Part shown: positions 29,242 through 49,005 of the stretch, in pieces
Layout of the letters: every line of letters starts with the position of its first letter
Position numbering within the stretch: position 1 is the first letter of the stretch
From: Candidatus Magasanikbacteria bacterium CG10_big_fil_rev_8_21_14_0_10_47_10
GTDB lineage: Bacteria; Patescibacteriota; Patescibacteriia; Magasanikbacterales; UBA922
Direction: 5' to 3'
DNA length: 64,000 nt
Assembly (NCBI GenBank): GCA_002773135.1
Contig: PFCB01000028.1
Location: 4,203-68,202 of the forward strand
Notes under the pieces: generated by a model
What the model saw: the letters and a program-made list of their open reading frames with translations, nothing else
What the model was told of the DNA's origin: nothing
The model's database searches: none
Translations under genes and position numbers: made by a program

Positions 29242-29363
29242 ATGAAGGATATAGTACATTTTGCAGCACTCTTCGTCAAGCAATTGCGCTAATATAAGGG
29301 AAAATATTGACTTTAGCAATTATGTATGGTATACACACAGTCAAATCAACAGGGGGTGAAATC

Positions 29364-30179
29364 ATGCGCAAGATCGTGAACATCATCATTTGGATTGTTG
29401 CCATTGGCCTGCTGGTCATCTACCCGCTTGTAAGCCGCGCGGATGAGGCGGCCGAGGCAGATGCCGACGAGGTGTCCGCGTTCGACAAGGGCTCAGCCCT
29501 GTTCGAAGCACGCGACTACGAGGCAGCAAAAGCTGCGCTGCTGAAAGTGATCGCAGACTCCGAGCTCACCCTAGGCCAGCGCGAGGAAGTACTCTTCATG
29601 CTCGGAGCGTCGTGCCACGAGCTTGGCAACCTCACATGCGCTGTCTTCTACTTGGAGAACTATCTCGCGATTGCAACAATCGCGAGCCCTCACCTCATTG
29701 AGGCGCGCAACCGCGTGAAGCGCATCAAGAATCCACCTCCACCTGTTGTCGAGGCTCCAAAGGAGGAGCCACTGCCTCCACCGGCAACCATGCCATCACC
29801 GGCAGAAGAGCACAAAGATGCGGAAGCATTGGCAAAGGCAGCTGAGCCAAGCCGAGGCATCATGCCGAACTGGTACGTATGGACACTGGGTGGAGCAGCT
29901 CTTGCCTGCGGAGTTGGAACAGTGGTGTACGGAGTCGAAGCGTTGAACCGCGAAAAGCAGACCCACTCACAGGACATCCAAAGCCGCGCCGAATATAGGC
30001 AACGCGTGGATGACATGGAGTCTGCGCAGACAGCCACGAACGTCTTCCTGCTCTCATCTGCTGTGCTTGGCGCCTCGGCCGGTGTGCTCTGGTGGCTGGA
30101 TCTGCGCGAATCCACACCATCGAACGCTCTTTCTCTCACCCCCACCCCTTCCGGCGCGACGCTTTCTGTCGCTTTCTAG
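29364..30179 (+). CDS. GC-rich island gene 1: membrane protein with N-terminal signal/anchor, TPR-like helical region, Pro-rich linker (KNPPPPVVEAPKEEPLPPPATMPSP) and C-terminal TM helix
   Basis: Start at MRKIVNIIIWIVAIGLLVIYPLVSRA preceded by GGGGGTG RBS; GC content rises abruptly here. Confidence 0.55.
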   Translation: MRKIVNIIIWIVAIGLLVIYPLVSRADEAAEADADEVSAFDKGSALFEARDYEAAKAALLKVIADSELTLGQREEVLFMLGASCHELGNLTCAVFYLENYLAIATIASPHLIEARNRVKRIKNPPPPVVEAPKEEPLPPPATMPSPAEEHKDAEALAKAAEPSRGIMPNWYVWTLGGAALACGVGTVVYGVEALNREKQTHSQDIQSRAEYRQRVDDMESAQTATNVFLLSSAVLGASAGVLWWLDLRESTPSNALSLTPTPSGATLSVAF

Positions 30180-30198
30180 CCGGCATGAGGCTGTCCAA

Positions 30199-30267
30199 AA
30201 GACCGCCCCATTCCCCTGTTATTCTGATCAAATCGGAATAAAAGGAGGAGATGGGCGGTCTTTTTTT
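30199..30267 (+). terminator. Structured terminator-like element: outer stem AAGACCGCCC/GGGCGGTCTT enclosing a 44-nt loop with inner stem TTATTC/GAATAA, followed by TTTTTTT
   Basis: Seen directly; AT-rich (host-like) composition unlike flanking coding DNA. Confidence 0.5.
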
Positions 30268-30327
30268 GCTAAAATTAGGTAAAAAAAGGAAAATACAAGA
30301 ATGTTCCCTATTCTTTCAGTCTTCATA

Positions 30328-30356
30328 TTGACAAAACCGCTTAATTATGCTAAATT
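30328..30356 (+). promoter_or_regulatory. Sigma70-like promoter (TTGACA - 17 nt - TAAATT) for the repeat-protein gene
   Basis: Consensus -35 hexamer and spacing; AT-rich intergenic. Confidence 0.45.
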
Positions 30357-30425
30357 ATCCTGTCTCGGTATACTAATATCGGACGTGTTTCTTACAACTC
30401 GCAGCCCTGTGGGCAAGGACAAGTC

Positions 30426-32639
30426 ATGAACCTCCGTAGCCTCGTCGGAATCGTTTTTTTCTTCAACTTCGCGGCGTGCATCGTGGGGGCGCCCGCCGGC
30501 GGCCCGGCTGAGTGCTACTCTGTCCGCGACTGCGCGGACAGCGGGCACTTCGCCTGCGTCAACGAGGAGTGCGTCGAGGTTGAGGACCCCGACGCCGATG
30601 TCAGCGGCAACGGCGGCGCGGGCGGCAGCATCGGCAGCCCGGACTTTGGTCCGGACGCCGAGCTGCCCGACATGATGGGCCCGCCCCCGTGCGAACCCGA
30701 CGTCGAGTGCGTTGTCCCCGATGCGCTCGGCCCGTGTGCCGATGGTGTCACGGTCTGCACCGAAGGCGGCGAGGTCTGCGATCCGGTCGCAACTCCGCAA
30801 GAGGAAGTGTGCGACGGCGTGGACAACAACTGCAACGGCGAGACGGACGAAGGCGACCTCGACAGGTCGTGCTTCTCCGGCAGGCCCGAGCAGATCGACG
30901 TCGGCATCTGCCACGCAGGCACCCAAGCCTGCGTCAACGGCGCCTACGGCGACTGCGACGGCGAGACCCTGCCCGAGCTCGAGGGCGACGTGCCCGACGG
31001 CGAGGACAACAACTGCGACGGATCCGCTGACGAGGGCTTCGACTGCCTCCCTGGCATCGAAGACCGCGAATGCGGCCGCTTGCAGGTTGGCACGTGCCGA
31101 CCCGGCCTTCAGTCCTGTCAGCCCGACGGAACCTGGAGCGATTGCGAGGGACAAACCCTCCCCGCGCCCGAGTTCTGCGATGGCATGGACAACAACTGCG
31201 ACGGCATGGTCGACAACAACGCCATGGACGCCGATGGTGTCTGCGCCCTGGGCACTGGTGCATGCGTGCGCCAAGGCCTCGGAATCTGCTTCGATGGCAG
31301 AATCATCTGCAACGCGGTCCCGGGAGTTCCGGGGACCGAGCGCTGCAGCGACAACATGGACAACGACTGCGACGGCCAGATCGATGAAGGCTTCCCCGAC
31401 CTGGGAATGGCCTGCGAGGCCGGCATCGGCGAGTGCGCTCGTCAGGGCACACTCGTCTGCGCGGGCGATCGACTCGCCTGCAGCGCGGTTCCAGGACAGA
31501 CCGCCGCCGAGATCTGTGACGGACTCGACAACGACTGCGACGGTGAGACAGACGAGGACATGCTGGGCAACCCGCTGTCCCAGCTGTGCTACACCGGCCC
31601 TGTCGGGACTCAAGGCGTTGGACTGTGCCGCACCGGCGTACAGACCTGCCAGAACAGTCGCTTCGGCGACTGCCTCGGGCAGGTCCTGCCAGTGCAGGAA
31701 CAGTGTGGCGACGGAAACGATGAAGACTGCAACGGCATGATCGACGAGTCCTGCTGCGACCCCAGCCCCGAGATCTGTAACGGTCGCGACGACGACTGCG
31801 ACCGCCAGATCGACGAGGGCAACCCGGGTGGCGGCGCGGCCTGCGACACCGGACAGTTCGGACTCTGCGGACCCGGCACCATGACCTGCCAGAACGGACA
31901 GGTCGAGTGTGCCGGCGTGGATCCGGCTGCCGAGATCTGCGATGGTCTGGACAACGACTGCAACGGTGAAGTCGACGATGGCTTCAACGTAGGAGCGGCC
32001 TGCGCGGTCGGCATCGGTCTGTGCGAACGCACCGGCCGCATTGCTTGCCAGGCCGGCTTGGCCGCGTGCGACGCGGTCCCGGGACAGCCCGCCGTCGAGA
32101 TCTGCAACGGACTCGACGACGACTGCGACGGGATGGCCGACGAACACAACGTGCCGCTGGTGCAAGACGGAGACCTCTCGGTCTACACCTGCTCCCCCGA
32201 CTTCGTGGTGCAGGATCTCGGAGGCGGTCAGTTTCTGCGGATCGACCGCAACAGTCAGCCCATCCTCCAGCAAGCCGCGGCGGCCAACGCCTGCGCGGCG
32301 CGGGGCATGCGCCTCCCCACCATCGCAGAGCTGCGGTCGTGGATCGAGGGCTGCCCGACTACGGAAACGGGCGGTGCCTGCCGCATCACAGACGCGGCTG
32401 GCTGTGCCGGCCTTGCCGCTTGCGAGGACCGGGCGAACTGCCAGTGCGCCGCGGCCATGGGGCCGGCTGCCGATGGCTGCTACTGGGCAGCCGGCGTCTG
32501 GCAGGGCGAGTGCAGCCAGAACTGGAGCAGCCGCGTTGATGGCGCCTACGCCATCGCGGCAGTCTTCATCTCCGGCCGCGTCACCGGGTACCAACCACAG
32601 CCCTACGCCTACCGTTGCGTGGCCCCCGGCCTGCCCTAA
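30426..32639 (+). CDS. GC-rich island gene 2: secreted lipoprotein (lipobox FAAC) with ~9 Cys/Asp-rich CDGxDNDCDGxxDE(G) repeats (MopE-type putative metal-binding / thrombospondin-type-3-like Ca-binding motif) and a C-terminal ~170-aa lectin-fold/DUF1566-like domain (GMRLPTIAELRSW)
   Basis: 737 aa; repeats CDGVDNNCNGETDEG, DGEDNNCDGSADEGF, CDGMDNNCDGMVDNN, CSDNMDNDCDGQIDEGF, CDGLDNDCDGETDED, CGDGNDEDCNGMIDES, CNGRDDDCDRQIDEG, CDGLDNDCNGEVDDGF, CNGLDDDCDGMADEH; strongly C-ending codons. Confidence 0.7.
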   Translation: MNLRSLVGIVFFFNFAACIVGAPAGGPAECYSVRDCADSGHFACVNEECVEVEDPDADVSGNGGAGGSIGSPDFGPDAELPDMMGPPPCEPDVECVVPDALGPCADGVTVCTEGGEVCDPVATPQEEVCDGVDNNCNGETDEGDLDRSCFSGRPEQIDVGICHAGTQACVNGAYGDCDGETLPELEGDVPDGEDNNCDGSADEGFDCLPGIEDRECGRLQVGTCRPGLQSCQPDGTWSDCEGQTLPAPEFCDGMDNNCDGMVDNNAMDADGVCALGTGACVRQGLGICFDGRIICNAVPGVPGTERCSDNMDNDCDGQIDEGFPDLGMACEAGIGECARQGTLVCAGDRLACSAVPGQTAAEICDGLDNDCDGETDEDMLGNPLSQLCYTGPVGTQGVGLCRTGVQTCQNSRFGDCLGQVLPVQEQCGDGNDEDCNGMIDESCCDPSPEICNGRDDDCDRQIDEGNPGGGAACDTGQFGLCGPGTMTCQNGQVECAGVDPAAEICDGLDNDCNGEVDDGFNVGAACAVGIGLCERTGRIACQAGLAACDAVPGQPAVEICNGLDDDCDGMADEHNVPLVQDGDLSVYTCSPDFVVQDLGGGQFLRIDRNSQPILQQAAAANACAARGMRLPTIAELRSWIEGCPTTETGGACRITDAAGCAGLAACEDRANCQCAAAMGPAADGCYWAAGVWQGECSQNWSSRVDGAYAIAAVFISGRVTGYQPQPYAYRCVAPGLP

Positions 32640-32722
32640 CCCACTTCTTCCATTTTTCCCTGGAAGTCCGCCACGGCGGACTCGGGAACCTACCAAGGAG
32701 CGCCTCTCTTCATGTTGAAGAG

Positions 32723-32756
32723 GGGCACAAACAAAAACCCGCCTTATAAAAGGCGG
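32723..32756. terminator. Bidirectional rho-independent terminator AAAAACCCGCCTT-ATAA-AAGGCGGGTTTTT
   Basis: Perfect stem, A-tract and T-tract. Confidence 0.8.
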
Positions 32757-32853
32757 GTTTTTGTTTGTACATACCGTTGACAAACACGCTTTTTTTTGCT
32801 AAAGTTTGCAGGCAAATTGCTGTCCAATTCGGACGGCAGCGCATGGAGGAACT

Positions 32854-33645
32854 GTGTCCGATCATCCGATCAAGAGCGCCGCGCACGACGCGGCGGAGAA
32901 GTTCACCCGAGACGGCCGACCGGCAGATGGGGTGGTCTACCGCGCCGTCCTGCCGGACAGCCGATCGAGCAGCTACTTCACCAGCTTCGGCTTCCAAGGC
33001 GTGGGGATGACCGCCCTTGGGTACCAGGTCGTGATGACCAGCTACTTCGAACCCATGATCAGAATGGGAGCGATCACGGGCTGGCGCGACAACGCCCCGC
33101 GCTACATCTATGCCCTGAGGGGAGGTGAGGCCATCGCGTGGACCGAGCTGGGTTGTCTGGCCAAGAAGGGCCAGAGCCAGCAGGAGAAGGTCCGCCTCTT
33201 CCCCGGCATCATGCCGGGCAGCGGCGCTGCGCGCGCCCAGACCGTCATGATGGACGCAGGCGGCACGCTCTGGCTGACGCGCAACGGAGAGACCGACCGC
33301 TTCTACCGCCTGGTCAAGACCGAGAGCGGCAGCTGGCGGCACATCGAACCGGTCATCCTGCAGGGACGACACACGGGGTGCTACATCGAGGCTGCCTCCA
33401 TGAGGAGCGATCACATCGCCGTGATCCGCTCGCGCCAAGATGGCACTCCGGCCTGGATGGAATCCTACGGGTTCAACGGTCGCTTTATTCCGGGCGCAGC
33501 CGACGAAGGACCCCGCACCCCTTGGCTGTACGGGTTGACCTTCCGAGCCGGCGATCCGGAACCATGGACCGTGATCGATACCACCACGCGCAAGGCCACG
33601 GTGCCGCGCGGCATCTACCGCGGCACCAAGTTGGTGCGGCGGTAG
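32854..33645 (+). CDS. GC-rich island gene 3: hypothetical cytoplasmic protein (no signal peptide), unknown family
   Basis: GTG start 7 nt after GGAGG RBS chosen; alternative ATG at 32806. Complex (non-low-complexity) amino-acid composition, in contrast to the antisense ORF. Confidence 0.4.
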   Translation: MSDHPIKSAAHDAAEKFTRDGRPADGVVYRAVLPDSRSSSYFTSFGFQGVGMTALGYQVVMTSYFEPMIRMGAITGWRDNAPRYIYALRGGEAIAWTELGCLAKKGQSQQEKVRLFPGIMPGSGAARAQTVMMDAGGTLWLTRNGETDRFYRLVKTESGSWRHIEPVILQGRHTGCYIEAASMRSDHIAVIRSRQDGTPAWMESYGFNGRFIPGAADEGPRTPWLYGLTFRAGDPEPWTVIDTTTRKATVPRGIYRGTKLVRR

Positions 33646-33864
33646 ATGCCGCGCGGCACCGCCCTCGCCTTCCTGCCCAATGGCGACCTGCTGGTCCTGC
33701 AGTACCGCCATGGCCATGGCGCCTTTGGCCGACCCGGCCGACTGGCCATCGTCAGCGCGGGCGCCCTTCCACCGCCGGTGTGACATGTTCCACCGCCTAC
33801 CGCATGGGGACTGGCCATCCCCTTCCATTCAATGCGTAGAATACATATTGTATTCATTGAAAAC

Positions 33865-33908: not shown

Positions 33909-34787
33909 TTATTGCAAGTAGTACCCCAAAAGCAGACAAATAGCACCAACACCACCAACCACCATGCCAATGACATCACGCTTGCGCACCTGCCGCGCTT
34001 CACGAAAAATGTACAACCCTACCATCACTGCGCCCAGCGTATAAAAAAACGCTTGCAATGGATAAAGGACTGTCGCTGGATACACAAGCAGCGCATAGTA
34101 CACCGATGAAAGCGACCCGACAATGCACAGTGACAACAATACTGAGTGCGCGTAAACCTTCTTTCCTCGCATCAAACTCCAATCGCGCTCTACGATACGC
34201 GGCACAAATGATCCTGCGCACCCCCCAATGTACCACGATGTGACGTAGGTAATTAATGGGATCCCCTTTACCGCAAAAAAATTAACCAAAAAATTGATCA
34301 CACCGACCACTAACACAAACCCGACCAGAGCGAATAGCCAGTCCTTTTGCTCTTGTGAGCGATCGGTCGATGATTTTTTATAAAATAATGTAATGGCCCC
34401 GAGTGTTGCCAGGACGCCGACCCAAACAAGCGCGCCAGGAGCTGTCCGAAAATCAAAAAACGCCCATTCTCCCAAAAAAAGAGCACTCAGTCCGACGGCC
34501 AAGCCATTGATGAAAGGCAAGAATAAAATTGTCTTCGACAAACTCAGATGAACACCCCGAGCAAAAAACCACGCCCCGATTGCGTTGAATGCTCCTATCA
34601 AAAAAACCGGTAAGAGAACCGGAACACTTTGGGTAAAGAAAAAAGCGATCATCGTGACGAGCAAGGCAGACCAAATATACATGGTATTCACCACCACGCT
34701 CGCCTTGTGCCGCGCAAGAAGCTTTTTATTGAAATACTGACTAACGATTGCCGCGAGAATTCCAAGGACAAAAATGACAGGCACCAT
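33909..34787 (-). CDS. Polytopic membrane protein (~9-10 TM; DMT/EamA-like or polysaccharide-associated permease), last gene of long minus-strand operon
   Basis: 292 aa, almost entirely hydrophobic helices. Confidence 0.4.
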   Translation of the reverse strand: MVPVIFVLGILAAIVSQYFNKKLLARHKASVVVNTMYIWSALLVTMIAFFFTQSVPVLLPVFLIGAFNAIGAWFFARGVHLSLSKTILFLPFINGLAVGLSALFLGEWAFFDFRTAPGALVWVGVLATLGAITLFYKKSSTDRSQEQKDWLFALVGFVLVVGVINFLVNFFAVKGIPLITYVTSWYIGGCAGSFVPRIVERDWSLMRGKKVYAHSVLLSLCIVGSLSSVYYALLVYPATVLYPLQAFFYTLGAVMVGLYIFREARQVRKRDVIGMVVGGVGAICLLLGYYLQ

Positions 34788-34790: not shown

Positions 34791-35546
34791 CTAACTGTTA
34801 TCCTCTGCGAGTGATTTGATATATCCTTCATTTCTTTCATACATCCCATTCAACTCCCGCCACTGTGGGTGAGCATCCACAAGCGCGCGAATATCAGCCA
34901 TTGAGCAGGGTCCTCCTGCTTCTTTGCAGGCCGCGGCAACATGTCGCAAAAAATCCAAATCTTCCGGGGTGTCCAGCGTCCATCGATATCCCGACCAATC
35001 TGCATCATGCACAATATTGCCTATAGCAAACAGAGTGGGATTCTTCCATATATAGGGCGTGACATGCTCACGCTCAGAAGAGAGCCCTGCTTCATTCCAC
35101 GCGCGTTCCAGAGCCTGAAACGAAAATACTTCAACGTCGATTCCGTCCGGATAGGTTGCCGGCTGCGTATTTGCGACATAGTCGTAGCCCCCTTTTTGAA
35201 ATTCTTGAACAATCCGGTCAATAACAGCAGGATCCATAAAAGGGCAATCGCCGGTTATTCTGATGACACTGTCGGCGTTTACTTTTTTTGCGGCCTGATA
35301 ATATCGATCAAGGACATCATCTTCACTTCCTCTGTACACCGTGAGTCCCCGCTCCTCCGCCCACGTTGCAAGCGGATCATCTTTCGCGTCAGTGGTTGTT
35401 GCCAACACAACCTGCTGAGTTGTGAGAGATCGTTTCACCGCATCCACAACATGCGCTATTGCCGGTCTGCCAGCGATATCAAGAAGCATCTTTCCCGGCA
35501 AGCGCGAAGACCCCATTCGCGCCTGAATAATAGCGACAACCTTCAT
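34791..35546 (-). CDS. CMP-nonulosonic acid synthetase-type cytidylyltransferase (NeuA/PseF/LegF/SpsF family)
   Basis: MKVVAIIQARMGSSRLPGKML N-terminal signature of acylneuraminate cytidylyltransferases; 251 aa. Confidence 0.75.
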   Translation of the reverse strand: MKVVAIIQARMGSSRLPGKMLLDIAGRPAIAHVVDAVKRSLTTQQVVLATTTDAKDDPLATWAEERGLTVYRGSEDDVLDRYYQAAKKVNADSVIRITGDCPFMDPAVIDRIVQEFQKGGYDYVANTQPATYPDGIDVEVFSFQALERAWNEAGLSSEREHVTPYIWKNPTLFAIGNIVHDADWSGYRWTLDTPEDLDFLRHVAAACKEAGGPCSMADIRALVDAHPQWRELNGMYERNEGYIKSLAEDNS

Positions 35547-36541
35547 ACGTAAGAAATAGAAATAAATCGCCCGGTCTCGTTGGACTCCTTTGCCGCAACT
35601 ATCAACCGCACGACGGCCGCACCGGAGGCAAGCGGCGTTTTTGTTTGCGTCCGCGCGTCTACGGCCTCCAAAAAATGGCGCGCTTCTTCTACATACATAT
35701 CATTAATGTCGTAATCCTCTACAAGGGGAAACTCCTCTTCATCGTGTTCCTTGGTCTTGAGAATGATTTTCTTTTCCGGCATAGACCAAAGAATAGTCCC
35801 TTTTTCGCCGACAAACTCAAAATTTCGTTGATAAAACCGCTGCAAGTAATCAAGGTGTATTTCCCCAATAGCACCGTTTTCAAATCGTAAAATCGTAGCG
35901 GCAACGTCTTCTACATCTATGTCAAGATCACTTACTGTATCAGCAAAGCAGGCAAGCTGTTTTACCGGCCCCACAAACCATGTAAGATAATCAAACTCAT
36001 GTGAATCAAGCAAAATTCCTCCACCTAATTTCTTATTTGCACTATACCCCTGTTTATAATCTTCCCAAGGATGCCAGTCTGGCAAATATTGGCCAAACTG
36101 ACAGCGAGCTGTCAAAATTTTTCCAATCGTCCCGGCATCAATAAGTTCTTTCATTTTGATAAACAATGGATAAAACTTCCAATTGCTCCCAACCATGGTG
36201 ATCAGATTCTTTTCTTTGGCTACTGCAATGAGTTGATCCATACCTTCCAATGAATGCGATACTGGCTTTTCTATAAACAAATGACACCCCTTATCTGCAC
36301 AATACAGAGCTTGCTCCATATGATATAGAGAAGGAGAGCAAACAAAAGCAATGTCAAAGGATTCGGCTTCAAACGCTTCCTCCATTGAGGGATAGACAGG
36401 AATGCCAAATTCATCTTTCAACGGCTGAATTCTGTCGGCATTCACCTCTACAATTGCCACTCCTTTTTCGCCCAACGAAATAAGATTCCTGGCGTGACGC
36501 TTTCCAATGGATCCGCCTCCCAAAACGAGAATGTGTTTCAT
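35543..36541 (-). CDS. Gfo/Idh/MocA-family NAD(P)-dependent oxidoreductase
   Basis: MKHILVLGGGSIGKRHARNL...EKPVS motif; 332 aa; start overlaps upstream stop. Confidence 0.8.
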   Translation of the reverse strand: MKHILVLGGGSIGKRHARNLISLGEKGVAIVEVNADRIQPLKDEFGIPVYPSMEEAFEAESFDIAFVCSPSLYHMEQALYCADKGCHLFIEKPVSHSLEGMDQLIAVAKEKNLITMVGSNWKFYPLFIKMKELIDAGTIGKILTARCQFGQYLPDWHPWEDYKQGYSANKKLGGGILLDSHEFDYLTWFVGPVKQLACFADTVSDLDIDVEDVAATILRFENGAIGEIHLDYLQRFYQRNFEFVGEKGTILWSMPEKKIILKTKEHDEEEFPLVEDYDINDMYVEEARHFLEAVDARTQTKTPLASGAAVVRLIVAAKESNETGRFISISYV

Positions 36542-37180: not shown

Positions 37181-39544
37181 TTATTGCGTATTACGAACAG
37201 TCCGCGGCGCGACAATGTCACCCTCGAGTGACGCGACAATTGCGTCAATTGATTCAAAAGACGCCAACATATCACACGCTCGGTCAAATACGGTCAAAAA
37301 TTCATCCACGTGTTCACGGGTATGCAAATAACTCAGAAGCACGGAGCTTGTAAATAAGATACCGGATTTATGCAAGTGTTCATATACAAATGTTTTGTAC
37401 ACGCGCGCTTCATAGTCATCTTGCAACTGAATGGTCATGACCGGATGCGGTCCGCAACCGCTCAATATGATTGGAACCTCATACTTCCGGGCAATCGCGT
37501 TGCCCCGGTCTATCATGTATTGACCAATATCAAATAAGTGGGAATGCACATCACCAAACTCCCTCATCATGGCAATGGTTTCCAGGGCGGCGACCATCCC
37601 GGGAACATAGCCCCCAAAGGTTGTGGAGACAAATACTTCATCCATCCGGCGCATATATTCCGCTTTCCCGCAAATGGCGGACAAAGGAAATCCCCCTGAA
37701 ATAGCTTTCCCAAAACACCCTATGTCTGGCGTCACACCATAATACTCCTGCGCGCCACCCAACGCCCATCGAAACCCTGTGACCATTTCGTCAAAGATAA
37801 GCAGCGCACCGTGCGCGTGCGCTATTTCCTTTATTTTTGCAAGAAAATCATCGGTTGGATGCTCGGATGATGCAGGCTCCAGTATAACCGCGCAAATTGA
37901 GTCCGGATTCTCCCGAAATATTTTTTCCAATGACGCCGGATTGTTGTACTCAAAATCATGTGTCATTGTTTTTATACTCTCTGGCACGCCATTGCTGCGC
38001 CCGGCCTTCGTGCAAATACTCCAGTCTTGCCAGCCATGATAGCCGCACTTTGCAACGTGATCTCGGCCGGTCACATATCGTGCGAGACGGATGGCGCCGC
38101 TTGTCGCGTCATTACCATTGATTAAAAAACGGCTCATTTCCGCACAAGGTACGACCTCTCGTAAAACAGTGGCCAACTCCAATTCTTTTTCCGATGGCAA
38201 TGAAAAAATAGTGCCGCGGTCAATTTGTTCTTTCACCGCCGTATTTATTCTGTTATGCGCGTAACCAAATACCATGGGACCCAGCGCCATCAGAAAGTCG
38301 AGATACTTATTTCCGTCCGCATCCCATATATGCACGCCCTGCGCGCGTGCAATCGTAAGCGGCGTTACCCCCACCACAAACTGCGTTGGTGTTTTGCTCA
38401 ATGTCTGCGATGCCCCCGGGATATATTGTTGTATTTCTTTTAATTGTTCTCGTTTGTCCATATGAATTTGCGGCGTAAAGTAAGTGATTTCATCAAACGC
38501 CGTTAAAAATTTTGTGATATCTCCAGCCCAGGCGCTATCGGTTTTCGTATACATCTCCCGCAAGACATAAAGCGTTTTAATCAAAAAATCATCCAATATA
38601 AGCACGTGCAAAAGATCCTTCTCTTGGCGCGCCAGTGGCATTTCTGCTTCATACGCGCTCAAAAATATTTTGGTCAAAGACAGCGCTGTTGTCGCAACAT
38701 CTGCAGTGGACTGATCAACAAAAAATTGCCTGCCAAACCGATAGATCGCAAACGCGACATCACGCGCACGCTGACTCACGCGCAGTGCGTCAAAATCAAG
38801 AATCGCCGCGAGCGTATCTCCTTTCATGATCACGTTGTGAGGATGCAAATCAGAATGAATAATTTGCGTTGGTAGCGCGTCGATCTTGGCTCTGTTGGCA
38901 TCAACACGGACAACAGCGGCGCGGAGCGCCGGCATGGACGCTATGACCATTTCATCTGTCTGAGTGCGCACGTCCTTCTGCTCTATGTGCTCCGCAATTT
39001 CTACAAAATCTTTCTCTGTATAGGATGGTATGACATTAAAATATGCCTTTGTCTGTTTACTATGGCCTTCAATATCAGAAGCAAGAGTGGCCTCTAATCC
39101 CGCCAGCCCCTTGTGGACCTTTGCGACTGCCATGGCAACAGACGCCAGAGCCTCCTGCGTTGGAACAAAATGAGATCCATCAATAAAACGGAATACGGTG
39201 TACAATATGCCGTGACGCTGAACATATCCCTGCCCGTCAATGGTTTTAATGGCTTCACTTACAGGAATGCCCAGATCCATCAGCGCCTCCACAACCGACA
39301 TATATCTGCGAACTTGCGCTTCGCTATCAATCAGTTGATTTCTTCGCACCAGCAATGTTTCGTTCTCAAGTACCACCTTGTAGTTGCTCGAATTTATTTC
39401 ATTTCTACTCAATTGCGTAATATCGTGAATACCACCATTCTTTCCATACGCAGCCAAAATTTCAGCAAACATGCCCCAGTCCCCGGCATACGGCTCGTAG
39501 GTGATCAGCGGGTCAGAAAAATTGTCTTTTGGGAATACTGTCAT
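37181..39544 (-). CDS. Bifunctional fusion: N-terminal APH/choline-kinase-like small-molecule kinase + C-terminal class III (PLP) aminotransferase (GSA-aminomutase-like)
   Basis: 787 aa; kinase catalytic motif IIHSDLHPHNVIM and DFD; aminotransferase-III motifs GVHIWDADGNKYLDF, LIFDEMVTGFR, CFGKAISGG (Lys). Confidence 0.75.
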   Translation of the reverse strand: MTVFPKDNFSDPLITYEPYAGDWGMFAEILAAYGKNGGIHDITQLSRNEINSSNYKVVLENETLLVRRNQLIDSEAQVRRYMSVVEALMDLGIPVSEAIKTIDGQGYVQRHGILYTVFRFIDGSHFVPTQEALASVAMAVAKVHKGLAGLEATLASDIEGHSKQTKAYFNVIPSYTEKDFVEIAEHIEQKDVRTQTDEMVIASMPALRAAVVRVDANRAKIDALPTQIIHSDLHPHNVIMKGDTLAAILDFDALRVSQRARDVAFAIYRFGRQFFVDQSTADVATTALSLTKIFLSAYEAEMPLARQEKDLLHVLILDDFLIKTLYVLREMYTKTDSAWAGDITKFLTAFDEITYFTPQIHMDKREQLKEIQQYIPGASQTLSKTPTQFVVGVTPLTIARAQGVHIWDADGNKYLDFLMALGPMVFGYAHNRINTAVKEQIDRGTIFSLPSEKELELATVLREVVPCAEMSRFLINGNDATSGAIRLARYVTGRDHVAKCGYHGWQDWSICTKAGRSNGVPESIKTMTHDFEYNNPASLEKIFRENPDSICAVILEPASSEHPTDDFLAKIKEIAHAHGALLIFDEMVTGFRWALGGAQEYYGVTPDIGCFGKAISGGFPLSAICGKAEYMRRMDEVFVSTTFGGYVPGMVAALETIAMMREFGDVHSHLFDIGQYMIDRGNAIARKYEVPIILSGCGPHPVMTIQLQDDYEARVYKTFVYEHLHKSGILFTSSVLLSYLHTREHVDEFLTVFDRACDMLASFESIDAIVASLEGDIVAPRTVRNTQ

Positions 39545-39939
39545 ACAGCTGAATAGTCCGCCTCTGAATATGAATCCGCTTTTGCCGGATCAAATAGCGT
39601 CGCACGATATTCAATGAATATCACATCTGTCAGGGCCTCCATTTCATGGTATACATCCTTTTCAATTATCACATACGACATTGGATCAATATCCTGGCGC
39701 AGATCCTCCCCTTTTCTATTTTTTGCATACAATCGAATTTGTCCGGAAATCAAAAAAAATAGCTCCGGATCTTTTGAAGGATCAATGCCGGTATGGAAAT
39801 GATTTGCAAATGTACTGCCCTGCTTTCGCGTATACAGCGTCACTTGCTTGCCGGGAAGATTCCGGAACAACTCAAAAACATCACCACGATCATCCGATGG
39901 GCTGTTTGAGACACCCTTTGTGATGGTAATGCCTTTCAT
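39541..39939 (-). CDS. Cupin-fold protein (WxcM/FdtA-like sugar 3,4-ketoisomerase-type domain)
   Basis: Start at MKGITITKG; motif SDDRGDVFELF...HFH resembles DxRGxLxxxE...HAH of FdtA/WxcM cupins. Confidence 0.5.
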   Translation of the reverse strand: MKGITITKGVSNSPSDDRGDVFELFRNLPGKQVTLYTRKQGSTFANHFHTGIDPSKDPELFFLISGQIRLYAKNRKGEDLRQDIDPMSYVIIEKDVYHEMEALTDVIFIEYRATLFDPAKADSYSEADYSAV

Positions 39940-39940: not shown

Positions 39941-40696
39941 TTAGGTGTTGAGCGCCTCCTTAAAAAACTGCATGTTTTTGACATCATTTGACAATCCATC
40001 CTGCTTGGGTGTTTCAAAAACGAGCTGCGCATCTGATTGAATAAATCGGTTATTCAACTCGCTGCGAACCCAGGCAGCGTCAATGCGGCTCTCCCACAAA
40101 TTTGTATGCTCATCCACGGCATGAGATATGTCGCCTCCGGAAATATGAAAATATGTTGGCTTCAACGCATCCAAGCAGTCTGCTACAAATGTTTTGTAAT
40201 CAAGCCCTTGATAGACCGCCGCTTTTGCTGCCTTTTCAAAATCAAAGCAAATTGGTTTGACTGCGGCGATCTGCTTAAGCTGTTCAAGCGTTTGTGCGTA
40301 CATTGGCTGCTCGTTGGTATCAAGACCTGCCATGTTTTCTATCAGAATGCGCGGATCATCAATCCTCTCCAGCTCATGAAAAAATGATTCAAACGTATGA
40401 TTCTGCCCGGGATGAACAATAATCTTCTGCGCGCCCAGATAATCAGCAAGCCGTCTGGTTCCCTCCCATATTTTTAATTGCTCGGGGCCAATCATGAACT
40501 CGTGAAATCCGCTTGTATGGGTATGATGAATTTCAACTGGCACCTCTTGGAGCGAGTCAAAATGTTCCATTTCATCAGCGGATCCCGGGTTGTGGTACAG
40601 TTCAATAAAATCAACAATCCCTTTCTTGTATAGCAAAACGGCCTCTGTAAAAAGGTCTTTATTATTGGTCCAAAGCTTTAATCCGTACTTAATCAT
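39941..40696 (-). CDS. Xylose-isomerase-like TIM-barrel (sugar phosphate isomerase/epimerase family) protein
   Basis: Start at MIKYGLKLWT; His/Glu-rich barrel pattern (EIHHTHTSGFHE, HPG); family assignment tentative. Confidence 0.4.
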   Translation of the reverse strand: MIKYGLKLWTNNKDLFTEAVLLYKKGIVDFIELYHNPGSADEMEHFDSLQEVPVEIHHTHTSGFHEFMIGPEQLKIWEGTRRLADYLGAQKIIVHPGQNHTFESFFHELERIDDPRILIENMAGLDTNEQPMYAQTLEQLKQIAAVKPICFDFEKAAKAAVYQGLDYKTFVADCLDALKPTYFHISGGDISHAVDEHTNLWESRIDAAWVRSELNNRFIQSDAQLVFETPKQDGLSNDVKNMQFFKEALNT

Positions 40697-41154
40697 ACAG
40701 GAATAGCTTTGGTCATGTGCAGCCACGCATCATCACGCGTCCGTTCCGTAAAGCCATATTTGGAAAGAAGCCTTTGCGAGCCACTGTTTGTACGAGAAAC
40801 AATCGCGTGAATCTCTGCTCCCTTCTGCATCATGGCAAGCGTTTCTCCAAGAAGCCGCGAGCCCACGCCTTGCCCATGATATGCAGGATCAAGGGCAATG
40901 GAAAGCACATACGATCCATCATTATCAACATCATATCGGCAATACCCGATGACCTCAGCCGCAGTACGCATCACATAACAACGATTGAGCCCGCCACCTA
41001 TATATGCCTTGGTAAACCACTGAATGTGGTTTGAAAGAGCCGGTATCTCTTTGGTCCGTGCAAAGGCATTCACTTCCGAAGAATACCGAATACGCCAGAC
41101 AGCCTCTGCATCATCCGCGTTTGCTTCATCGATTGTCATTTGAGCAGGCTCCAT
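40693..41154 (-). CDS. GNAT N-acetyltransferase (PseH-like candidate)
   Basis: 153 aa; acetyl-CoA motif QGVGSRLLGETLAMMQ; position between aminotransferase and NeuB-like synthase. Confidence 0.6.
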   Translation of the reverse strand: MEPAQMTIDEANADDAEAVWRIRYSSEVNAFARTKEIPALSNHIQWFTKAYIGGGLNRCYVMRTAAEVIGYCRYDVDNDGSYVLSIALDPAYHGQGVGSRLLGETLAMMQKGAEIHAIVSRTNSGSQRLLSKYGFTERTRDDAWLHMTKAIPV

Positions 41155-41159: not shown

Positions 41160-42263
41160 TTACAGGTCACTGCGTCCTTCCATGCCAATAATCTGACGCC
41201 ACGCGAGCGGTGTTCCGGACTCAATATCTTCCGCAGCGGCCTTTCCCAATACTTCTTCATAATACCTCGGCTGCAGCCCAAAATTCGGGCGAATCACGCG
41301 AATCGTATCCGGTGTAAAAATATCCCCTTTTTTAATATCGCGTGTCACAAAAATGGATTTTCGATATCTGATATTGTGTTCCTCCGGCTTGCTCTGGATT
41401 CCATAATTCACTTTTCCCTTTATTTTTTCGGCGCGGCGCACATCGCGCACAAATTGCGTAAATTCTGCAGGCCCCACAGAAAAATTTGCGTCAAATGTTT
41501 TGTCATCAGAATCGGCCACAACATGCTTTTCAATCATTGACGCTCCCATAATCGCCGCCTGCAATGGAATTTCACTGCCGGCGTTATTATCAGAAAATCC
41601 AACAACCACATCAAATTGCTTCGCAATATCCAGCATGGTGGCCATATTGGTGTCTTCGGGCTGAGGATCACCCGAATACGCGGTCACGCAATGAAAAATA
41701 CCAATATCACTTGCTCCATGCTGACGCAACGTATCAACAGCCAACTTGATTTCTTGTTCCGATGCAAAGCCCGTTGACATGATCACCGGCTTCCCCGTCT
41801 GCGCAATGCGTTTGAGAAGTGGAATATCAGTGACTTCGTAGGAAGCGACTTTATATAAAGGAACATCTAATGTCTCCAAAAAATCAACTGCGGTCGAATC
41901 AAATGGCGTGCTAAAAAAAACAAGATCCAATTCCTCTGCGATTTTCTGCAATGGCGCGTGCCACTCACGCGGTGTATACGCCTTTTGATAAATACTATAC
42001 AATGTCTCACCGGTCCACGAATCAGGATTACCACCACCGCCCACTTGAAAATATTCTTTTCTTGAATCAATGGTCATCCCGTCGGCAGTGTATGTTTGCA
42101 ACTTGATCGCATCCGCCCCGGCCGCGGCCGCGGCCTTCACAATATCAACCGCTTTTTCATACACGCCGCCATGATTTGCAGACATTTCGGCAATAATAAA
42201 ACACGGATTGTTTCCACCAATCTCCCGCTTCCCCTTTGGCGTGTTGATCGTAAATGTCTGCAT
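41160..42263 (-). CDS. Nonulosonic acid synthase (NeuB/PseI/LegI family, PEP-dependent) with C-terminal SAF/antifreeze-like domain
   Basis: 367 aa; CFIIAEMSANHGG, AIKLQTY motifs; SAF-like tail FVTRDIKKGDIFTPDTIRVIRP. Confidence 0.85.
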   Translation of the reverse strand: MQTFTINTPKGKREIGGNNPCFIIAEMSANHGGVYEKAVDIVKAAAAAGADAIKLQTYTADGMTIDSRKEYFQVGGGGNPDSWTGETLYSIYQKAYTPREWHAPLQKIAEELDLVFFSTPFDSTAVDFLETLDVPLYKVASYEVTDIPLLKRIAQTGKPVIMSTGFASEQEIKLAVDTLRQHGASDIGIFHCVTAYSGDPQPEDTNMATMLDIAKQFDVVVGFSDNNAGSEIPLQAAIMGASMIEKHVVADSDDKTFDANFSVGPAEFTQFVRDVRRAEKIKGKVNYGIQSKPEEHNIRYRKSIFVTRDIKKGDIFTPDTIRVIRPNFGLQPRYYEEVLGKAAAEDIESGTPLAWRQIIGMEGRSDL

Positions 42264-42272: not shown

Positions 42273-43415
42273 CTACGTGGATTGATGCCCAACGCACTCT
42301 TTTATCGTTTCAATAACATACGCTTGCTCATCGGGCTGCAAGGTTGGATATATTGGCAGTGACAAGATAGACTCATACCATTTTTCAGCAACAGGACAGT
42401 GCCCTTTTTGATATCCTAGTGAACGGTAGTATGGGTGGTAATAAACCGGAATATAGTGCACCTGCACCCACATATTTTTTGCTCTCAATGCGGCGAATAC
42501 CTCTGCCCGCTTTCCCTCTGCCGCACCGGCGAGCCGAATAACATATAAATGCCACGCGGATTGGTACAGGGAGTCGTCCGCCATGGGTGTCTCAATTTCC
42601 GTAACCGACGCAAATGCGTCATGATAGCGTGCGGCAATATCACGCCTTTTGGCAATAAACTCATTAAGCTTGCCAAGTTGACTCCTCCCCAGTGCCGCGT
42701 GGATATCGCTCAGCCGGTAATTATTGCCAAGCAACTGCATCTCATGATACCAACCCCCCGGTGATTCGGATTGCAAGTCTGTGCTCGTTATCCCATGCGT
42801 GGCAAACTGTTTCATTGTTTTATATACATGACGGTCGTTGGTCAACACTGCTCCCCCTTCCCCTGTTGTAATGCTTTTGACCGGATGAAAACTAAACGCT
42901 GTCATATCGGCAATTGATCCAACCATTTTTTCATTGTACGTTGCTCCCAGCGCGTGGCAACCATCTGCAATAACCAAGAGCCCATGACGGTCCGCGATTG
43001 CGCGAATAGCATCATAATCAACCGGACGCCCCGTATAGTCGATAGGAACAATGGCCTTTGTCCGCGGTGTGATTGCCGCTTCAATTTTTGATGGATCAAT
43101 GTTGCCGGTTGCTGGATCAATATCAACAAAAATGGGCGTTGCTCCCTGGAACAATGCGGCGTTCCCGGTTGCGGCAAACGTCATGGGGGATGTAATAATT
43201 TCATCACCCGGGCCAATGCCCGCGGCAACATACGCGGCATGCAGGGCCGCTGTCCCGTTTGAAACGGCAACCGCATATGACGCGCCACAAAAATCCGCCA
43301 GCGCTTCTTCAAACGCTGTTACTGCCGGCCCCTGAGTCAGATAGTCCGAGCGAAGAACACTGACAACAGCATCAATATCATCATCTCCAATAGTTTGTTT
43401 GCCGTAGGATATCAT
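42273..43415 (-). CDS. DegT/DnrJ/EryC1-family PLP aminotransferase (PseC/LegC-like UDP-4-keto-sugar aminotransferase)
   Basis: 380 aa; MISYGKQTIGDDDIDAVVSVLRSDYLTQGP N-terminus typical of PseC; HPVKS(I)TTGEGG PLP-Lys. Confidence 0.85.
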   Translation of the reverse strand: MISYGKQTIGDDDIDAVVSVLRSDYLTQGPAVTAFEEALADFCGASYAVAVSNGTAALHAAYVAAGIGPGDEIITSPMTFAATGNAALFQGATPIFVDIDPATGNIDPSKIEAAITPRTKAIVPIDYTGRPVDYDAIRAIADRHGLLVIADGCHALGATYNEKMVGSIADMTAFSFHPVKSITTGEGGAVLTNDRHVYKTMKQFATHGITSTDLQSESPGGWYHEMQLLGNNYRLSDIHAALGRSQLGKLNEFIAKRRDIAARYHDAFASVTEIETPMADDSLYQSAWHLYVIRLAGAAEGKRAEVFAALRAKNMWVQVHYIPVYYHPYYRSLGYQKGHCPVAEKWYESILSLPIYPTLQPDEQAYVIETIKECVGHQST

Positions 43416-44416
43416 ATTGATGCAAGAAGCTCTTTTAATGTCTGCTCATTGAGCCACACTGGATTATTGTCACTGGAGTAAAAAAAATCTTTGCGTACAT
43501 CAGGCAAATTCTCGTATACACTTCGCAGCCGTTCATCCCCATGTGGCAAAATAACAAAATGCCGATCCGTCTCTTTTGCGTTTCTCGCTTCCTCCTTTGT
43601 CACCAAGGTCTCATGCATTTTTTCTCCGGGACGAATCCCAACTTCATGAATCCGGCACTCCGGAGCAACAATAGCAATAAACTCTTGAACCTTCATGCTT
43701 GGAATTTTTGGAATAAACATTTCTCCGCCGTGCATGTGTTCCAAGGCGTGGAGAACCAAGTCAACACCGGCATCAAGCGTGATCCAAAATCGTGTCATTT
43801 CCGAATGTGTCAAGGTGATCGCGCCGGTTGCTCGTTGACGTTCAATCACTTGCAACAGGCTTCCGCGACTTCCCAACACATTGCCATAGCGCACAACACT
43901 CATGCGTGTCGCGCGATCATTAAAGGCGGTTGAACTGCTCACAACCAATTTTTCAGCGCAAAGCTTTGTCGCGCCGTACAAATTTGCCGGCCCTGCCGCC
44001 TTGTCGGTCGATACCAGTACCAACCGTTGTACATTATTGTCCACTGCCGCCTGAATCACGTTTTGCGTCCCCAAAATATTTGTTTTAATCGCCTCAAACG
44101 GATTATACTCAAGCGCGGGCACCTGCTTGAGCGCGGCGGCATGCACGACATAGTCCACGCCACAAAATGCGCTGCGGAGTCTATCAATATCACGAACATC
44201 ACCAATAAAAAAACGAAGTTTACCCTGCGGATCCTCAATATCAGTCATCATGACTGATTGCTTGAGCTCATCACGACTAAAAATAATAATGCGCCGCGCA
44301 TCGCTGTCCGCCAGCAAGCGTCGAATAAACTGCTGACCGAATGATCCGGTCCCGCCGGTGATCAAAATTGACTTATTTTTGAGAAATTCGAGAGACATAG
44401 AGTGGTTAAAAGACAA
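43412..44416 (-). CDS. UDP-N-acetylglucosamine 4,6-dehydratase (PseB/FlaA1-type short-form)
   Basis: 334 aa; KSILITGGTGSFGQQF signature. Confidence 0.85.
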   Translation of the reverse strand: MSFNHSMSLEFLKNKSILITGGTGSFGQQFIRRLLADSDARRIIIFSRDELKQSVMMTDIEDPQGKLRFFIGDVRDIDRLRSAFCGVDYVVHAAALKQVPALEYNPFEAIKTNILGTQNVIQAAVDNNVQRLVLVSTDKAAGPANLYGATKLCAEKLVVSSSTAFNDRATRMSVVRYGNVLGSRGSLLQVIERQRATGAITLTHSEMTRFWITLDAGVDLVLHALEHMHGGEMFIPKIPSMKVQEFIAIVAPECRIHEVGIRPGEKMHETLVTKEEARNAKETDRHFVILPHGDERLRSVYENLPDVRKDFFYSSDNNPVWLNEQTLKELLASI

Positions 44417-44463: not shown

Positions 44464-45561
44464 TTATTTTTCATATGTATTTCTTTCCCTAATTATTGCG
44501 AGTATCTGCTCAGCCACGCGTCCTTTTCCGTACAAGTCGCGCCACTGAATATCTTTGGTATACATCGTTTTTGCGGCTGATGCCATTGCCTCAGGACTCA
44601 CGTCAGATAAGCAATTCATCCCCGCCTCAACAGTCTCCGGCCGCTCCGTGCGTACCCGAATTGTAACACAGGGAACATGCAAAATGCTGGCTTCTTCTTG
44701 CAAACCACCGGAATCTGTAACAATAAGAGCCGCGTGTGCCTGGAGCTGCAAAAAATCAAGGTACCCCATAGGCTCAATGGTGCGAACAGCGTCAGGAACA
44801 TCAAGTCCAAAGGATTGAATATTATGTTTTGTCCGCGGATGCACAGGGAGCACAAGCGGCATCTGCAGTTCCTCCGATATACGCGACAACCCGAGCAAAA
44901 TGTTGTTCAGGACATTTTTTTGGTCGACATTTTCTGCCCGATGCGCTGTCACCAATACGTACTTCTTCTTTTCAAGTCCAAGCATGCTGCACACATTTTC
45001 ACGTGATTCGGATATCGCAAGATTTTGATAAACCGCATCTGACACAGTATTCCCGGTTACATATACCTTCTCTGCCGCTATCCCTTCATCCAAAAGATTT
45101 GTTTTTGCAATTCCCGTCGGCGCAAACAGATACTCGGCGAGATGATCTGTAAGGATCCTATTTCTTTCCTCTATCATGTTCATATCCCCACTGCGTAAAC
45201 CGGCTTCTACATGCCCAATCGGTATCTGCAATTTGTTTGCCGCCAACGCCCCGGCAAGCACGGTATTTGTATCGCCCTGCACCAACACAATATCGGGGCA
45301 GGCCTGCTTCAACACAGTCTCCAAAGCTCTCATCATATACCCCATTTGTGACGCATAGTCACGACTCCCCACACGCACGTTATGCGCAGGCGGGGAAAGG
45401 CCAAGATCGTCAAAAAAGGCGCCATCCATTGTGTGATCATAATGCTGTCCCGTATGTATCAAAACAAACGCGACCCCGTTACTCTCACAGGCCCGAATAA
45501 CCGGCGACATTTTGATAATTTCCGGGCGCGTTCCTACAATAATGGCGACAGTATAGGGCAT
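44464..45561 (-). CDS. UDP-N-acetylglucosamine 2-epimerase family (WecB/NeuC/LegG-type)
   Basis: 365 aa; MPYTVAIIVGTRPEIIKMSPVI N-terminus, HVEAGLRS motif. Confidence 0.85.
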   Translation of the reverse strand: MPYTVAIIVGTRPEIIKMSPVIRACESNGVAFVLIHTGQHYDHTMDGAFFDDLGLSPPAHNVRVGSRDYASQMGYMMRALETVLKQACPDIVLVQGDTNTVLAGALAANKLQIPIGHVEAGLRSGDMNMIEERNRILTDHLAEYLFAPTGIAKTNLLDEGIAAEKVYVTGNTVSDAVYQNLAISESRENVCSMLGLEKKKYVLVTAHRAENVDQKNVLNNILLGLSRISEELQMPLVLPVHPRTKHNIQSFGLDVPDAVRTIEPMGYLDFLQLQAHAALIVTDSGGLQEEASILHVPCVTIRVRTERPETVEAGMNCLSDVSPEAMASAAKTMYTKDIQWRDLYGKGRVAEQILAIIRERNTYEK

Positions 45562-48562: not shown

Positions 48563-48567
48563 AAGTT

Positions 48568-49005
48568 TTATTTAAGATCCTGAATTTTTTTGATAATTTG
48601 GCTTGTTGATATGCCATCGTGATAGCCAAGCTTTACGATAACACCGCCAACCTCGGCAATTGCGCCCGCTCCCGGCGTCTCCTCGCCTTCCCCCCACCCT
48701 GCTCCTGGACCTTTGGCAAGGATATGAGGCTTTACCAACCGAATATTCTTACATGGCGTGAGCTGATCTTGTATCATGACTTCGTCAACGCACGACAAAT
48801 GCTCTACGACGTACAATCGCTGTTCCTGACTTATGATAGGACGACGCTTAAACTCTTCGGCAACTTCATCGGTAAAAATTCCAACAACAAGTTTGTCGCC
48901 CAGCGCTCTTGCCTCCTTGAGGAGTTCAACATGGCCGCTATGAAGCATATCAAATACTCCATATGTATAGACAATTTTTTGTTCGCTATTCATAGTATGA
49001 TTCAT
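48568..49005 (-). CDS. Cytidylyltransferase-like nucleotidyltransferase (TagD glycerol-3-phosphate cytidylyltransferase / RfaE domain II family)
   Basis: 145 aa; (H/T)xGH motif GVFDMLHSGH. Confidence 0.75.
   Translation of the reverse strand: MNHTMNSEQKIVYTYGVFDMLHSGHVELLKEARALGDKLVVGIFTDEVAEEFKRRPIISQEQRLYVVEHLSCVDEVMIQDQLTPCKNIRLVKPHILAKGPGAGWGEGEETPGAGAIAEVGGVIVKLGYHDGISTSQIIKKIQDLK

Follow-up and report, generated by a model that had tools for sequence, protein, structure and literature searches.

The window analysed here, 64,000 nucleotides of contig PFCB01000028.1 from Candidatus Magasanikbacteria bacterium CG10_big_fil_rev_8_21_14_0_10_47_10, carries an operon for a pseudaminic acid (Pse)-type nonulosonate, and within it a single open reading frame (ORF) that joins an APH-type kinase (KIN) to a class III pyridoxal phosphate (PLP) aminotransferase (AT). 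The operon lies on the minus strand, in the order WecB, PseB, PseC, PseI, a GNAT N-acetyltransferase, a 251-aa protein (orf251), a 132-aa ORF, the KIN-AT fusion, a HAD hydrolase, a Gfo/Idh/MocA oxidoreductase (Gfo), a cytidylyltransferase (CT) and a 292-aa protein (Table 1). Successive genes overlap by 4 nt or stand 1-3 nt apart, the start codon of the fusion overlapping the stop codon of the gene upstream of it (ATGA), and from this layout the operon genes are predicted to be translationally coupled. It is very likely that the fused ORF forms part of a conserved module for Pse tailoring or for the late steps of the pathway, and we infer that this rare five-gene module (KIN, AT, HAD, Gfo and CT) replaces the usual last Pse steps in a few, mostly candidate-phyla, bacteria.

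Both halves of the fused protein scored far above the Pfam gathering cut-offs: APH (PF01636) covers residues 42-274 (E 1.2e-19, 71.4 bits against a cut-off of 23.2), and Aminotran_3 (PF00202) covers residues 394-754 (E 1.4e-50, 172.6 bits against 30.5). An earlier note, made from the sequence alone, had described one 787-aa ORF combining an APH-type kinase with a class III PLP enzyme resembling glutamate-1-semialdehyde (GSA) aminomutase, and had picked out the motifs HSDLHPHN, DFD and CFGKAISGG with its lysine. This description holds, all of the motifs being present on the minus strand, which the note had left unstated. It had also set the fusion apart from the canonical enzymes of the Pse and legionaminic acid (Leg) pathways; in agreement with this, none of the canonical PseB, PseC, PseH, PseG, PseI and PseF models matches the fused protein among the best 25 of its 73 profile matches.

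The KIN-AT fusion is probably genuine, because fusion of these genes is recurrent, they are tightly adjacent in related genomes, and the identical sequence occurs in several assemblies. Three contigs, drawn from at least two assemblies, encode the same 787-aa protein (P0001, by annotation a hypothetical protein, in a Candidatus Magasanikbacteria metagenome-assembled genome, MAG); these contigs may share samples and so are not fully independent. One of them is a JGI metagenome contig, to which the window matched at 100% over 8364 bp. A frameshift or an assembly chimera was ruled out, since no frameshift was found, the GC contents of the two halves are alike (0.465 and 0.484) and a second assembly carries the identical sequence. 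The earlier note had named a frameshift and a close homologue with an established unrelated function as the observations that would speak against it, and neither was found. One base (TAA versus CAA at 38468-38470) nevertheless decides between fusion and separation, and 16 of 18 relatives are unfused, so the two genes might in truth be unfused, with the sense codon at the junction due to an error in base calling or in the consensus. Against the identical product on the three contigs, possibly from shared samples, and the independent fusions of the same two genes elsewhere, we consider such an artefact extremely improbable.

The junction itself points to a simple origin. In 16 of the 18 related loci the kinase and the AT are separate genes, most of them 4-38 nt apart, and four KIN/AT pairs lie in the same frame, parted by a single stop codon. 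The kinases of the relatives end in ...YFWP plus, in most, zero to a few residues, and their ATs begin MDK...LKEI..YIP, while the window reads ...YFTP-Q-I-H-MDKREQLKEIQQYIP. The CAA codon of Gln359 falls where the relatives' kinases end (two stop at the preceding Pro, others 1-3 residues later), and the ATG of Met362 is the retained former start of the AT. With CAA at this point and the ATG kept after it, one TAA-to-CAA transition would therefore be enough, and the fusion is most simply explained as a lineage-specific loss of the kinase stop codon. As an evolutionary event it is ordinary, a single base change between adjacent, co-translated genes.

Fusions of this kind have arisen repeatedly. 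A word-indexed search of 5.8 billion proteins returned a sole close full-length relative, P0002, a 1035-aa CT-KIN-AT triple fusion with 50% identity, and a distant APH+AT protein, P0102 (76% of the query aligned, at 23% identity). P0124, of 838 aa and with a KIN-AT linker of ~45 residues, was added when 1.84 billion cluster representatives were scanned exhaustively with phmmer. In a neighbour-joining tree of the AT domains, the window stood beside the unfused locus L013, the two triple fusions (P0002 and L023) grouped together elsewhere, and P0124 was basal, which speaks for three or more fusions of independent origin (the window, CT-KIN-AT and P0124). This recurrence, together with the tight adjacency of the genes, suggests that kinase and AT act on the same intermediate.

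An APH domain combined with a class III AT is already a known architecture. The order seen here, an APH-fold kinase followed by a fold-type-I class III PLP enzyme, is shared with PRK06148 and PRK06149 and with human HYKK and PHYKPL/ETNPPL. By its profile scores, however, the window protein is not of the PRK06148/PRK06149 type, in which the AT belongs to the AGXT2-like subfamily, phosphate is eliminated and a nonulosonate context is lacking; identity to their representative P0102, a bacterial fusion, is 23%. We rejected membership in this APH-(M23)-AT family, as the kinase half reached 21.3 bits against 1128 for PRK06148 and 16.9 against 973 for PRK06149, and neither model was among the best 25 profile matches of the full fused protein.

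The domain score, catalytic loop and metal site place the kinase half in the APH/choline-kinase-like superfamily (PF01636). HSDLHPHN and DFD are invariant or nearly so across 17 kinase homologues, and Arg67 is invariant; stand-alone homologues are ~360 aa long and 36-47% identical to the window kinase half. The AlphaFold2 model (pLDDT 90) superposes on APH-fold kinases, the nearest solved folds being type II homoserine kinase and the anomeric N-acetylhexosamine 1-kinase NahK (TM 0.63-0.73), with APH(9), Bacillus subtilis YtaA of the CotI/CotS family, ethanolamine kinase and aminopropanol kinase also near. The modelled fold thus marks this half as a putative small-molecule hydroxyl kinase. NahK and type II homoserine kinase share its catalytic loop, at an identity of 14-17% that leaves the substrate-binding regions not comparable by sequence, and in profile comparison the kinase half passes no curated family cut-off. 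An aminoglycoside-resistance kinase followed by an unrelated gene was rejected, since APH(3') scored 13 bits against a cut-off of 205 and synteny with the AT is conserved. Type II homoserine kinase was likewise rejected, with 66 bits against 271 for ThrB_alt and 58 against 256 for PRK05231 (NCBIfam equivalog cut-offs). The kinase half also weakly matches the CotS/CotI spore-coat kinase families.

Assignment of the second half to the class III, fold-type-I PLP aminotransferases (PF00202) follows from its score, the Schiff-base Lys613 and Asp585, the pyridine-nitrogen Asp in the motif FDEMVTGFR; both residues are conserved in at least 90% of 70 AT homologues. Its best sequence and PDB matches are GSA aminomutases (2e7u at 207 bits, with shared PLP-binding residues), and GenB-type enzymes are also among its PDB sequence matches. 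A role in heme synthesis as HemL was rejected, as the scores stay below the equivalog cut-offs (254.8 against 527 for TIGR00713, 267.5 against 398 for PRK00062 and 331.2 against 486 for PRK06209) and the context is glycan, not tetrapyrrole, synthesis.

This half has thousands of relatives, with matches in Aeromonas, Legionella, Bacteroidota, archaea and cyanobacteria, and the closest several hundred include many with an N-terminal SpsF-type CT (~680 aa). Other fusions join the AT to Gfo/Idh/MocA and CT (~1030 aa), to Gfo/Idh/MocA alone (~770 aa), or to GNAT and CT (~860 aa), and where context was available these fusions were in Pse clusters, with PseB/PseC on one side and PseG/PseI on the other. 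An unassigned class III AT adjoins pseF and an aldo-keto reductase in most flagellin glycosylation islands of Aeromonas group I, a group of 96 strains (PMC7874193), and the O-antigen locus of Legionella pneumophila serogroups 6/12 carries a GSA aminomutase/class III AT (PMC3694923). A Vibrio cluster carries a fusion of an aldo-keto reductase to SpsF (PMC7371886), and B. subtilis SpsF is needed for the transfer, not the synthesis, of legionaminic acid, which fits its predicted role as a synthetase of cytidine monophosphate (CMP)-Leg (PMC7439481). The Aeromonas group I, Legionella Sg6/Sg12 and Flexibacter-type Pse clusters hold the same AT family as the window (~41-48% identity, with the motifs GxQTxSK and GYHGW in common) and share both the Pse context and the partnership of the AT with an oxidoreductase (aldo-keto or Gfo) and an SpsF-type CT; they differ in that PseG is present and the kinase and HAD are lacking. 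The literature searched held no characterised GSA-aminomutase-like gene in a Pse or Leg cluster and no characterised class III AT with a cytidylyltransferase. By sequence, the window AT belongs to an uncharacterised family typical of Pse clusters, as a rare kinase- and HAD-bearing variant. The kinase-associated ATs form a clade of their own, 58-70% identical to the window AT, in which Lys513 (lid-loop region), Arg781 and Arg784 (C-terminal tail) came up as mere candidates for extra conserved, phosphate-binding basic residues; at other positions basic residues have been lost.

The earlier note had suggested that these enzymes might supply a side chain such as an aminoalkyl phosphate or an N-acyl precursor; on this view the module would make a small phospho- or amino-alcohol or an amino-acid-like unit for subsequent attachment to the glycan. 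The structural and profile matches of the kinase do include ethanolamine, aminopropanol and homoserine kinases, and the typical substrates of class III ATs are small molecules with an aldehyde or an omega-amine. A precedent also exists in the CDP-threonine of flagellin glycans of Clostridioides difficile and P. aeruginosa (PMC11833859). The AT family, however, is fused to the cytidylyltransferase, GNAT and oxidoreductase of Pse clusters in dozens of clusters, and because these are core enzymes of the clusters the AT is tied to the nonulosonate itself; nor is any phosphotransferase or ligase that could attach such a unit conserved with the module. We therefore regard this possibility as very unlikely.

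The kinase family is much rarer than the AT family. Scanning one genome each for 185,579 species, we found it in only ~16 genomes, mostly of Patescibacteria (Magasanik-, Portnoy-, Peregrini- and Paceibacterota), together with a Firestonebacteria MAG and three "Gammaproteobacteria" MAGs. The related loci were compared by tblastn with the window proteins against all fetched loci, which reach ±10 kb into the flanks. The kinase lies directly upstream of the AT in all 18 related loci (in L012 with one gene inserted), the HAD follows the AT in each of the 15 where the sequence extends past it, Gfo and CT usually come next, and on every contig of sufficient length PseB, PseC and PseI are found beside the module. 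The window has KIN, AT, HAD, Gfo and CT in order inside its Pse cluster, and the same order occurs in L005, L010, L013, L015, L017, L018, L021 and L024; elsewhere Gfo and CT stand ahead of the kinase, or a methyltransferase, a GT2 or a PduL-like gene is inserted. The earlier note had drawn attention to the HAD and oxidoreductase next to the fusion, and this KIN-AT-HAD-Gfo-CT synteny, in ~16 species-level genomes, bears out a functional tie.

Accessory genes in the kinase loci comprise a WbuX/WbuZ/HisH acetamidino set, formyltransferases, PIG-L deacetylases, DUF218 proteins and PseH-like GNATs. The same clusters hold further fusions, GNAT-kinase twice and PseI-GNAT once (L007 10001-11590, L015 9329-11089 and L023 5528-7063). 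In L014, a GT2 glycosyltransferase and a PduL-type phosphate acyltransferase (3764-4261, Pfam E 2e-29) stand in the place of Gfo, between the HAD and the cytidylyltransferase. Three loci carry an extra NeuB-type synthase between Gfo and the cytidylyltransferase (L005 13996-14991, L012 12375-13370 and L013 14003-14998), which scores 223 bits with the Neu5Ac synthase model and 171 bits with the PseI model, both below cut-off. The cytidylyltransferase paired with it is ~30% identical to that of the window, versus 52-57% elsewhere, and this pairing of an extra synthase with a divergent cytidylyltransferase hints at a second ulosonic acid. In another Magasanikbacteria genome, the module is followed directly by genes for two large proteins with CotH domains (L005 15797-20453).

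Table 1. Features of the Pse operon and of the KIN-AT fusion in the window
Feature	Position	Strand	Remarks
PseB	43412-44416	minus	above NCBIfam equivalog cut-off
PseC	42273-43415	minus	above NCBIfam equivalog cut-off
PseI	41160-42263	minus	above NCBIfam equivalog cut-off
GNAT N-acetyltransferase	40693-41139	minus	weak PseH-like match
251-aa protein (orf251)	39941-40696	minus	AP_endonuc_2 E 0.003, below cut-off; xylose-isomerase-like TIM barrel
132-aa ORF	39541-39939	minus	directly upstream of fusion; no reliable family match
Fused KIN-AT ORF	37181-39544	minus	787 aa, ATG to TAA
Kinase domain	38471-39544	minus	aa 1-358
Catalytic loop HSDLHPHN	38834-38857	minus	aa 230-237
Mg-binding DFD	38789-38797	minus	aa 250-252
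Junction	38459-38470	minus	CAA (Gln359, 38468-38470), ATT, CAT, ATG (Met362, 38459-38461)
Class III PLP aminotransferase domain	37181-38461	minus	aa 362-787 plus stop
Schiff-base Lys613	37706-37708	minus	in CFGKAISGG (aa 610-618)
HAD-IA hydrolase, 213 aa	36538-37179	minus	starts 1 nt after fusion stop; YihX-like
Gfo/Idh/MocA NAD(P) oxidoreductase	35543-36541	minus	start overlaps HAD stop by 4 nt
SpsF/KdsB-type cytidylyltransferase (PF02348)	34791-35546	minus	
292-aa protein	33909-34787	minus	no family match; also after cytidylyltransferase in L017, L018

Among the genes around the fusion, the HAD hydrolase has a motif I, FDWGGV, that is invariant across the window and 15 related loci, with Gly at the Asp+2 position, and a motif IV that reads FIDNS. 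Its homologues are all stand-alone proteins of ~205 aa, so fusion partners gave no clue to its step; the nearest labelled relatives, which are distant, are glucose-1-phosphatases, and it weakly matches the YihX model (NF006991). The best matches of Gfo are inositol 2-dehydrogenase and UDP-GlcNAc 3-dehydrogenase, all below cut-off. Relatives of orf251 lie between PseI and the kinase in L005 (8595-9353), L010 (543-1295) and L017 (8515-9273), with 43-48% identity between loci. Xylose-isomerase-like TIM barrels often partner Gfo/Idh/MocA dehydrogenases in 3-keto-sugar chemistry. We also considered orf251 as a divergent PseG and rejected this, as it shows no similarity to two bona fide PseG proteins and a weak TIM-barrel match instead.

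The module occupies the place in Pse clusters where PseG and canonical PseF are expected. By tblastn and a PseG hidden Markov model (HMM), no PseG was found in the 64-kb window, and a two-sequence HMM found none within ±10 kb in the kinase loci; the same HMM did detect PseG in kinase-less AT-CT loci. Canonical PseF was not detected in the kinase-containing loci inspected, and the module cytidylyltransferase gave a weak match to the PseF model (28 bits over the first 70 residues). As tblastn with three PF02348 queries found no second NeuA/KdsB-type (PF02348) cytidylyltransferase in the window, that of the module is the only candidate CMP-Pse synthetase there.

This pattern bears on a further explanation, akin to the anomeric-kinase salvage route that the earlier note had raised and that gains some support here, in which an anomeric sugar kinase and a sugar-1-phosphate phosphatase bypass the missing PseG, or in which a CDP-sugar made by the cytidylyltransferase serves Gfo and the AT. 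NahK is among the top structural matches of the kinase, the HAD is YihX-like with its distant relatives labelled glucose-1-phosphatase, and PseG is undetectable in precisely the window and the kinase loci. Furthermore, the CT-KIN fusion of P0002 and L023 recalls bifunctional kinase/pyrophosphorylases, and the GNAT-KIN fusions put the kinase right after the PseH-type step in gene order. If kinase and phosphatase both acted on one anomeric position, however, the result would be a futile cycle, and the absence of PseG in other genomes rests on ±10 kb and a two-sequence HMM. As for a CDP-sugar, characterised PF02348 enzymes are known to make CMP-ulosonates, not CDP-sugars, and the enzyme in question is the sole candidate for CMP-Pse synthesis in the window. 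Taken together, we consider either version distinctly unlikely.

The explanation that we favour, tentatively and with less than even confidence, is that the module aminates a sugar of the Pse pathway while a phosphate serves as a transient handle. The kinase would phosphorylate one hydroxyl, the Gfo dehydrogenase would oxidise another to a carbonyl, and the PLP domain would transaminate this carbonyl to an amine on the phosphorylated intermediate; the HAD would then remove the phosphate, and the cytidylyltransferase would yield a CMP-activated, modified nonulosonate. In the window, the fusion would hard-wire the hand-over from kinase to AT. A transient phosphate is suggested by the kinase, AT and phosphatase always occurring together and in that order. 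The position of the HAD after the AT in all 15 loci, with glucose-1-phosphatases as its distant relatives, and a kinase fold closest to small-molecule kinases, including NahK, are consistent with this.

Comparable logic is known from other pathways. NtdC/NtdA/NtdB (kanosamine) and SerA/SerC/SerB oxidise, transaminate and dephosphorylate on a phosphorylated intermediate, and in Kdo8N synthesis (KdnB/KdnA) an ulosonic acid is oxidised and then aminated before CMP activation. NtdC, NtdA and NtdB, a Gfo/Idh/MocA dehydrogenase, an aminotransferase and a HAD phosphatase, would by analogy be the same enzyme set as in the window, a likeness drawn at the family level only. Unlike in the window module, NtdA is a DegT-type aminotransferase and the kinase of the Ntd pathway is the housekeeping glucokinase; moreover, the Ntd pathway has no ulosonate synthase or cytidylyltransferase.

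Several observations weigh against this proposal. The HAD lacks the Asp+2 general acid usual in HAD phosphatases. Pseudaminic acid has free hydroxyls only at O4 and O8, and its hexose precursor only at O1 and O3, so there are few sites that could take a new amine in addition to a phosphate; tri-amino nonulosonic acids are not reported in the library searched. AT-oxidoreductase-CT modules of the Aeromonas, Legionella and Flexibacter-type clusters do without kinase or HAD, which indicates that phosphorylation is not intrinsic to the chemistry of the AT. The literature searched held no characterised member of the kinase, AT or HAD subfamilies; within it, the topics of kinases or phosphatases with pseudaminic acid, the acinetaminic acid aci genes and PA1088-PA1090 likewise gave no characterisation of the module enzymes. 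Finally, where pairs of an APH kinase and a class III PLP enzyme are known and characterised (HYKK/PHYKPL and GenP/GenB3), they carry out phosphate eliminations, not transaminations.

This last point leads to the main rival explanation, a phospho-lyase deoxygenation, in which the kinase would phosphorylate a hydroxyl beside a free amine, the PLP domain would eliminate the phosphate to leave a deoxy-keto or deoxy-amino product (deoxygenation/deamination), and the dehydrogenase would reduce the carbonyl so formed. Known APH-fold/class III pairs that work by elimination are hydroxylysine kinase and 5-phosphohydroxylysine phospho-lyase, as well as GenP and GenB3, which act in gentamicin dideoxygenation. 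In the same direction point the GenB-type enzymes among the PDB matches of the AT half, the existence of a distant AGXT2-like APH+AT fusion (P0102), the PIG-L deacetylases of several kinase loci, which could free an amine, and the repeated fusion, which argues for direct hand-over of a phosphorylated product. The HAD, however, follows the AT in every locus with continuing sequence, and a lyase that itself releases the phosphate needs none. In addition, the AT is closest to GSA aminomutase and transaminases and not to AGXT2-like lyases, the kinase half reaches only 17-21 bits against PRK06148/PRK06149, and in many clusters this AT family does without a kinase. We therefore judge elimination to be unlikely.

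A more specific version of the amination that we favour seems rather doubtful. Here the module would form an unknown late branch of the Pse pathway, without PseG and PseF, that leads through a transient sugar phosphate to a new CMP-nonulosonate with a third nitrogen, mainly for surface glycans of the candidate phyla radiation (CPR); the product might be, for example, 8-amino-8-deoxy (methyl-ketone-derived) or 4-amino pseudaminic acid. Flagella, capsules and S-layers carry nonulosonic acids, which influence recognition by the immune system and susceptibility to phages; most of the enzymes that tailor these acids have no assigned function. Should the module indeed make a new nonulosonate, aminated or deoxygenated, this would widen the chemistry known for these sugars and show how CPR bacteria with reduced genomes build nonulosonates without PseG and PseF. 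For assigning a function to the widespread AT family, the kinase- and HAD-bearing module offers a compact, coupled and repeatedly fused set of genes.

Other genes of the window may contribute to the same glycan. The Pse operon is flanked by two tandem UDP-sugar 6-dehydrogenase genes (26442-29319) and by WecB (44464-45561), a non-hydrolysing UDP-GlcNAc 2-epimerase above cut-off, and the presence of both on its flanks suggests a ManNAcA-type sugar in the same glycan. A small cytidylyl/adenylyltransferase resembling TagD and RfaE domain II (48568-49005) has as neighbours a 181-aa ORF whose pyruvate-kinase-like matches are weak and a 400-aa protein that matches no family; the region that encloses them, 48017-50207, may be a glycerol-phosphate or heptose activation unit of the same glycan region. 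A 513-aa protein (52410-53951) weakly matches the BFO_1060 family glycosyltransferase model (28.7 bits against a cut-off of 200) and may be a candidate nonulosonate transferase.

Directly downstream of the operon lies a GC-rich block of ~4.5 kb (29300-33800), with 54-69% GC, and 66-69% over most of 30500-33700, against a window mean of 47.5%. It has long ORFs on both strands, including a 372-aa minus-strand ORF (32710-33828, 63.8% GC) that is maybe a shadow ORF and not the last gene of the operon. Four repeats of the MopE type, putatively metal-binding, occur in a plus-strand protein of 737 aa (30426-32639) in this block (Pfam E 1e-35); an antisense ORF of 812 aa has no family match.

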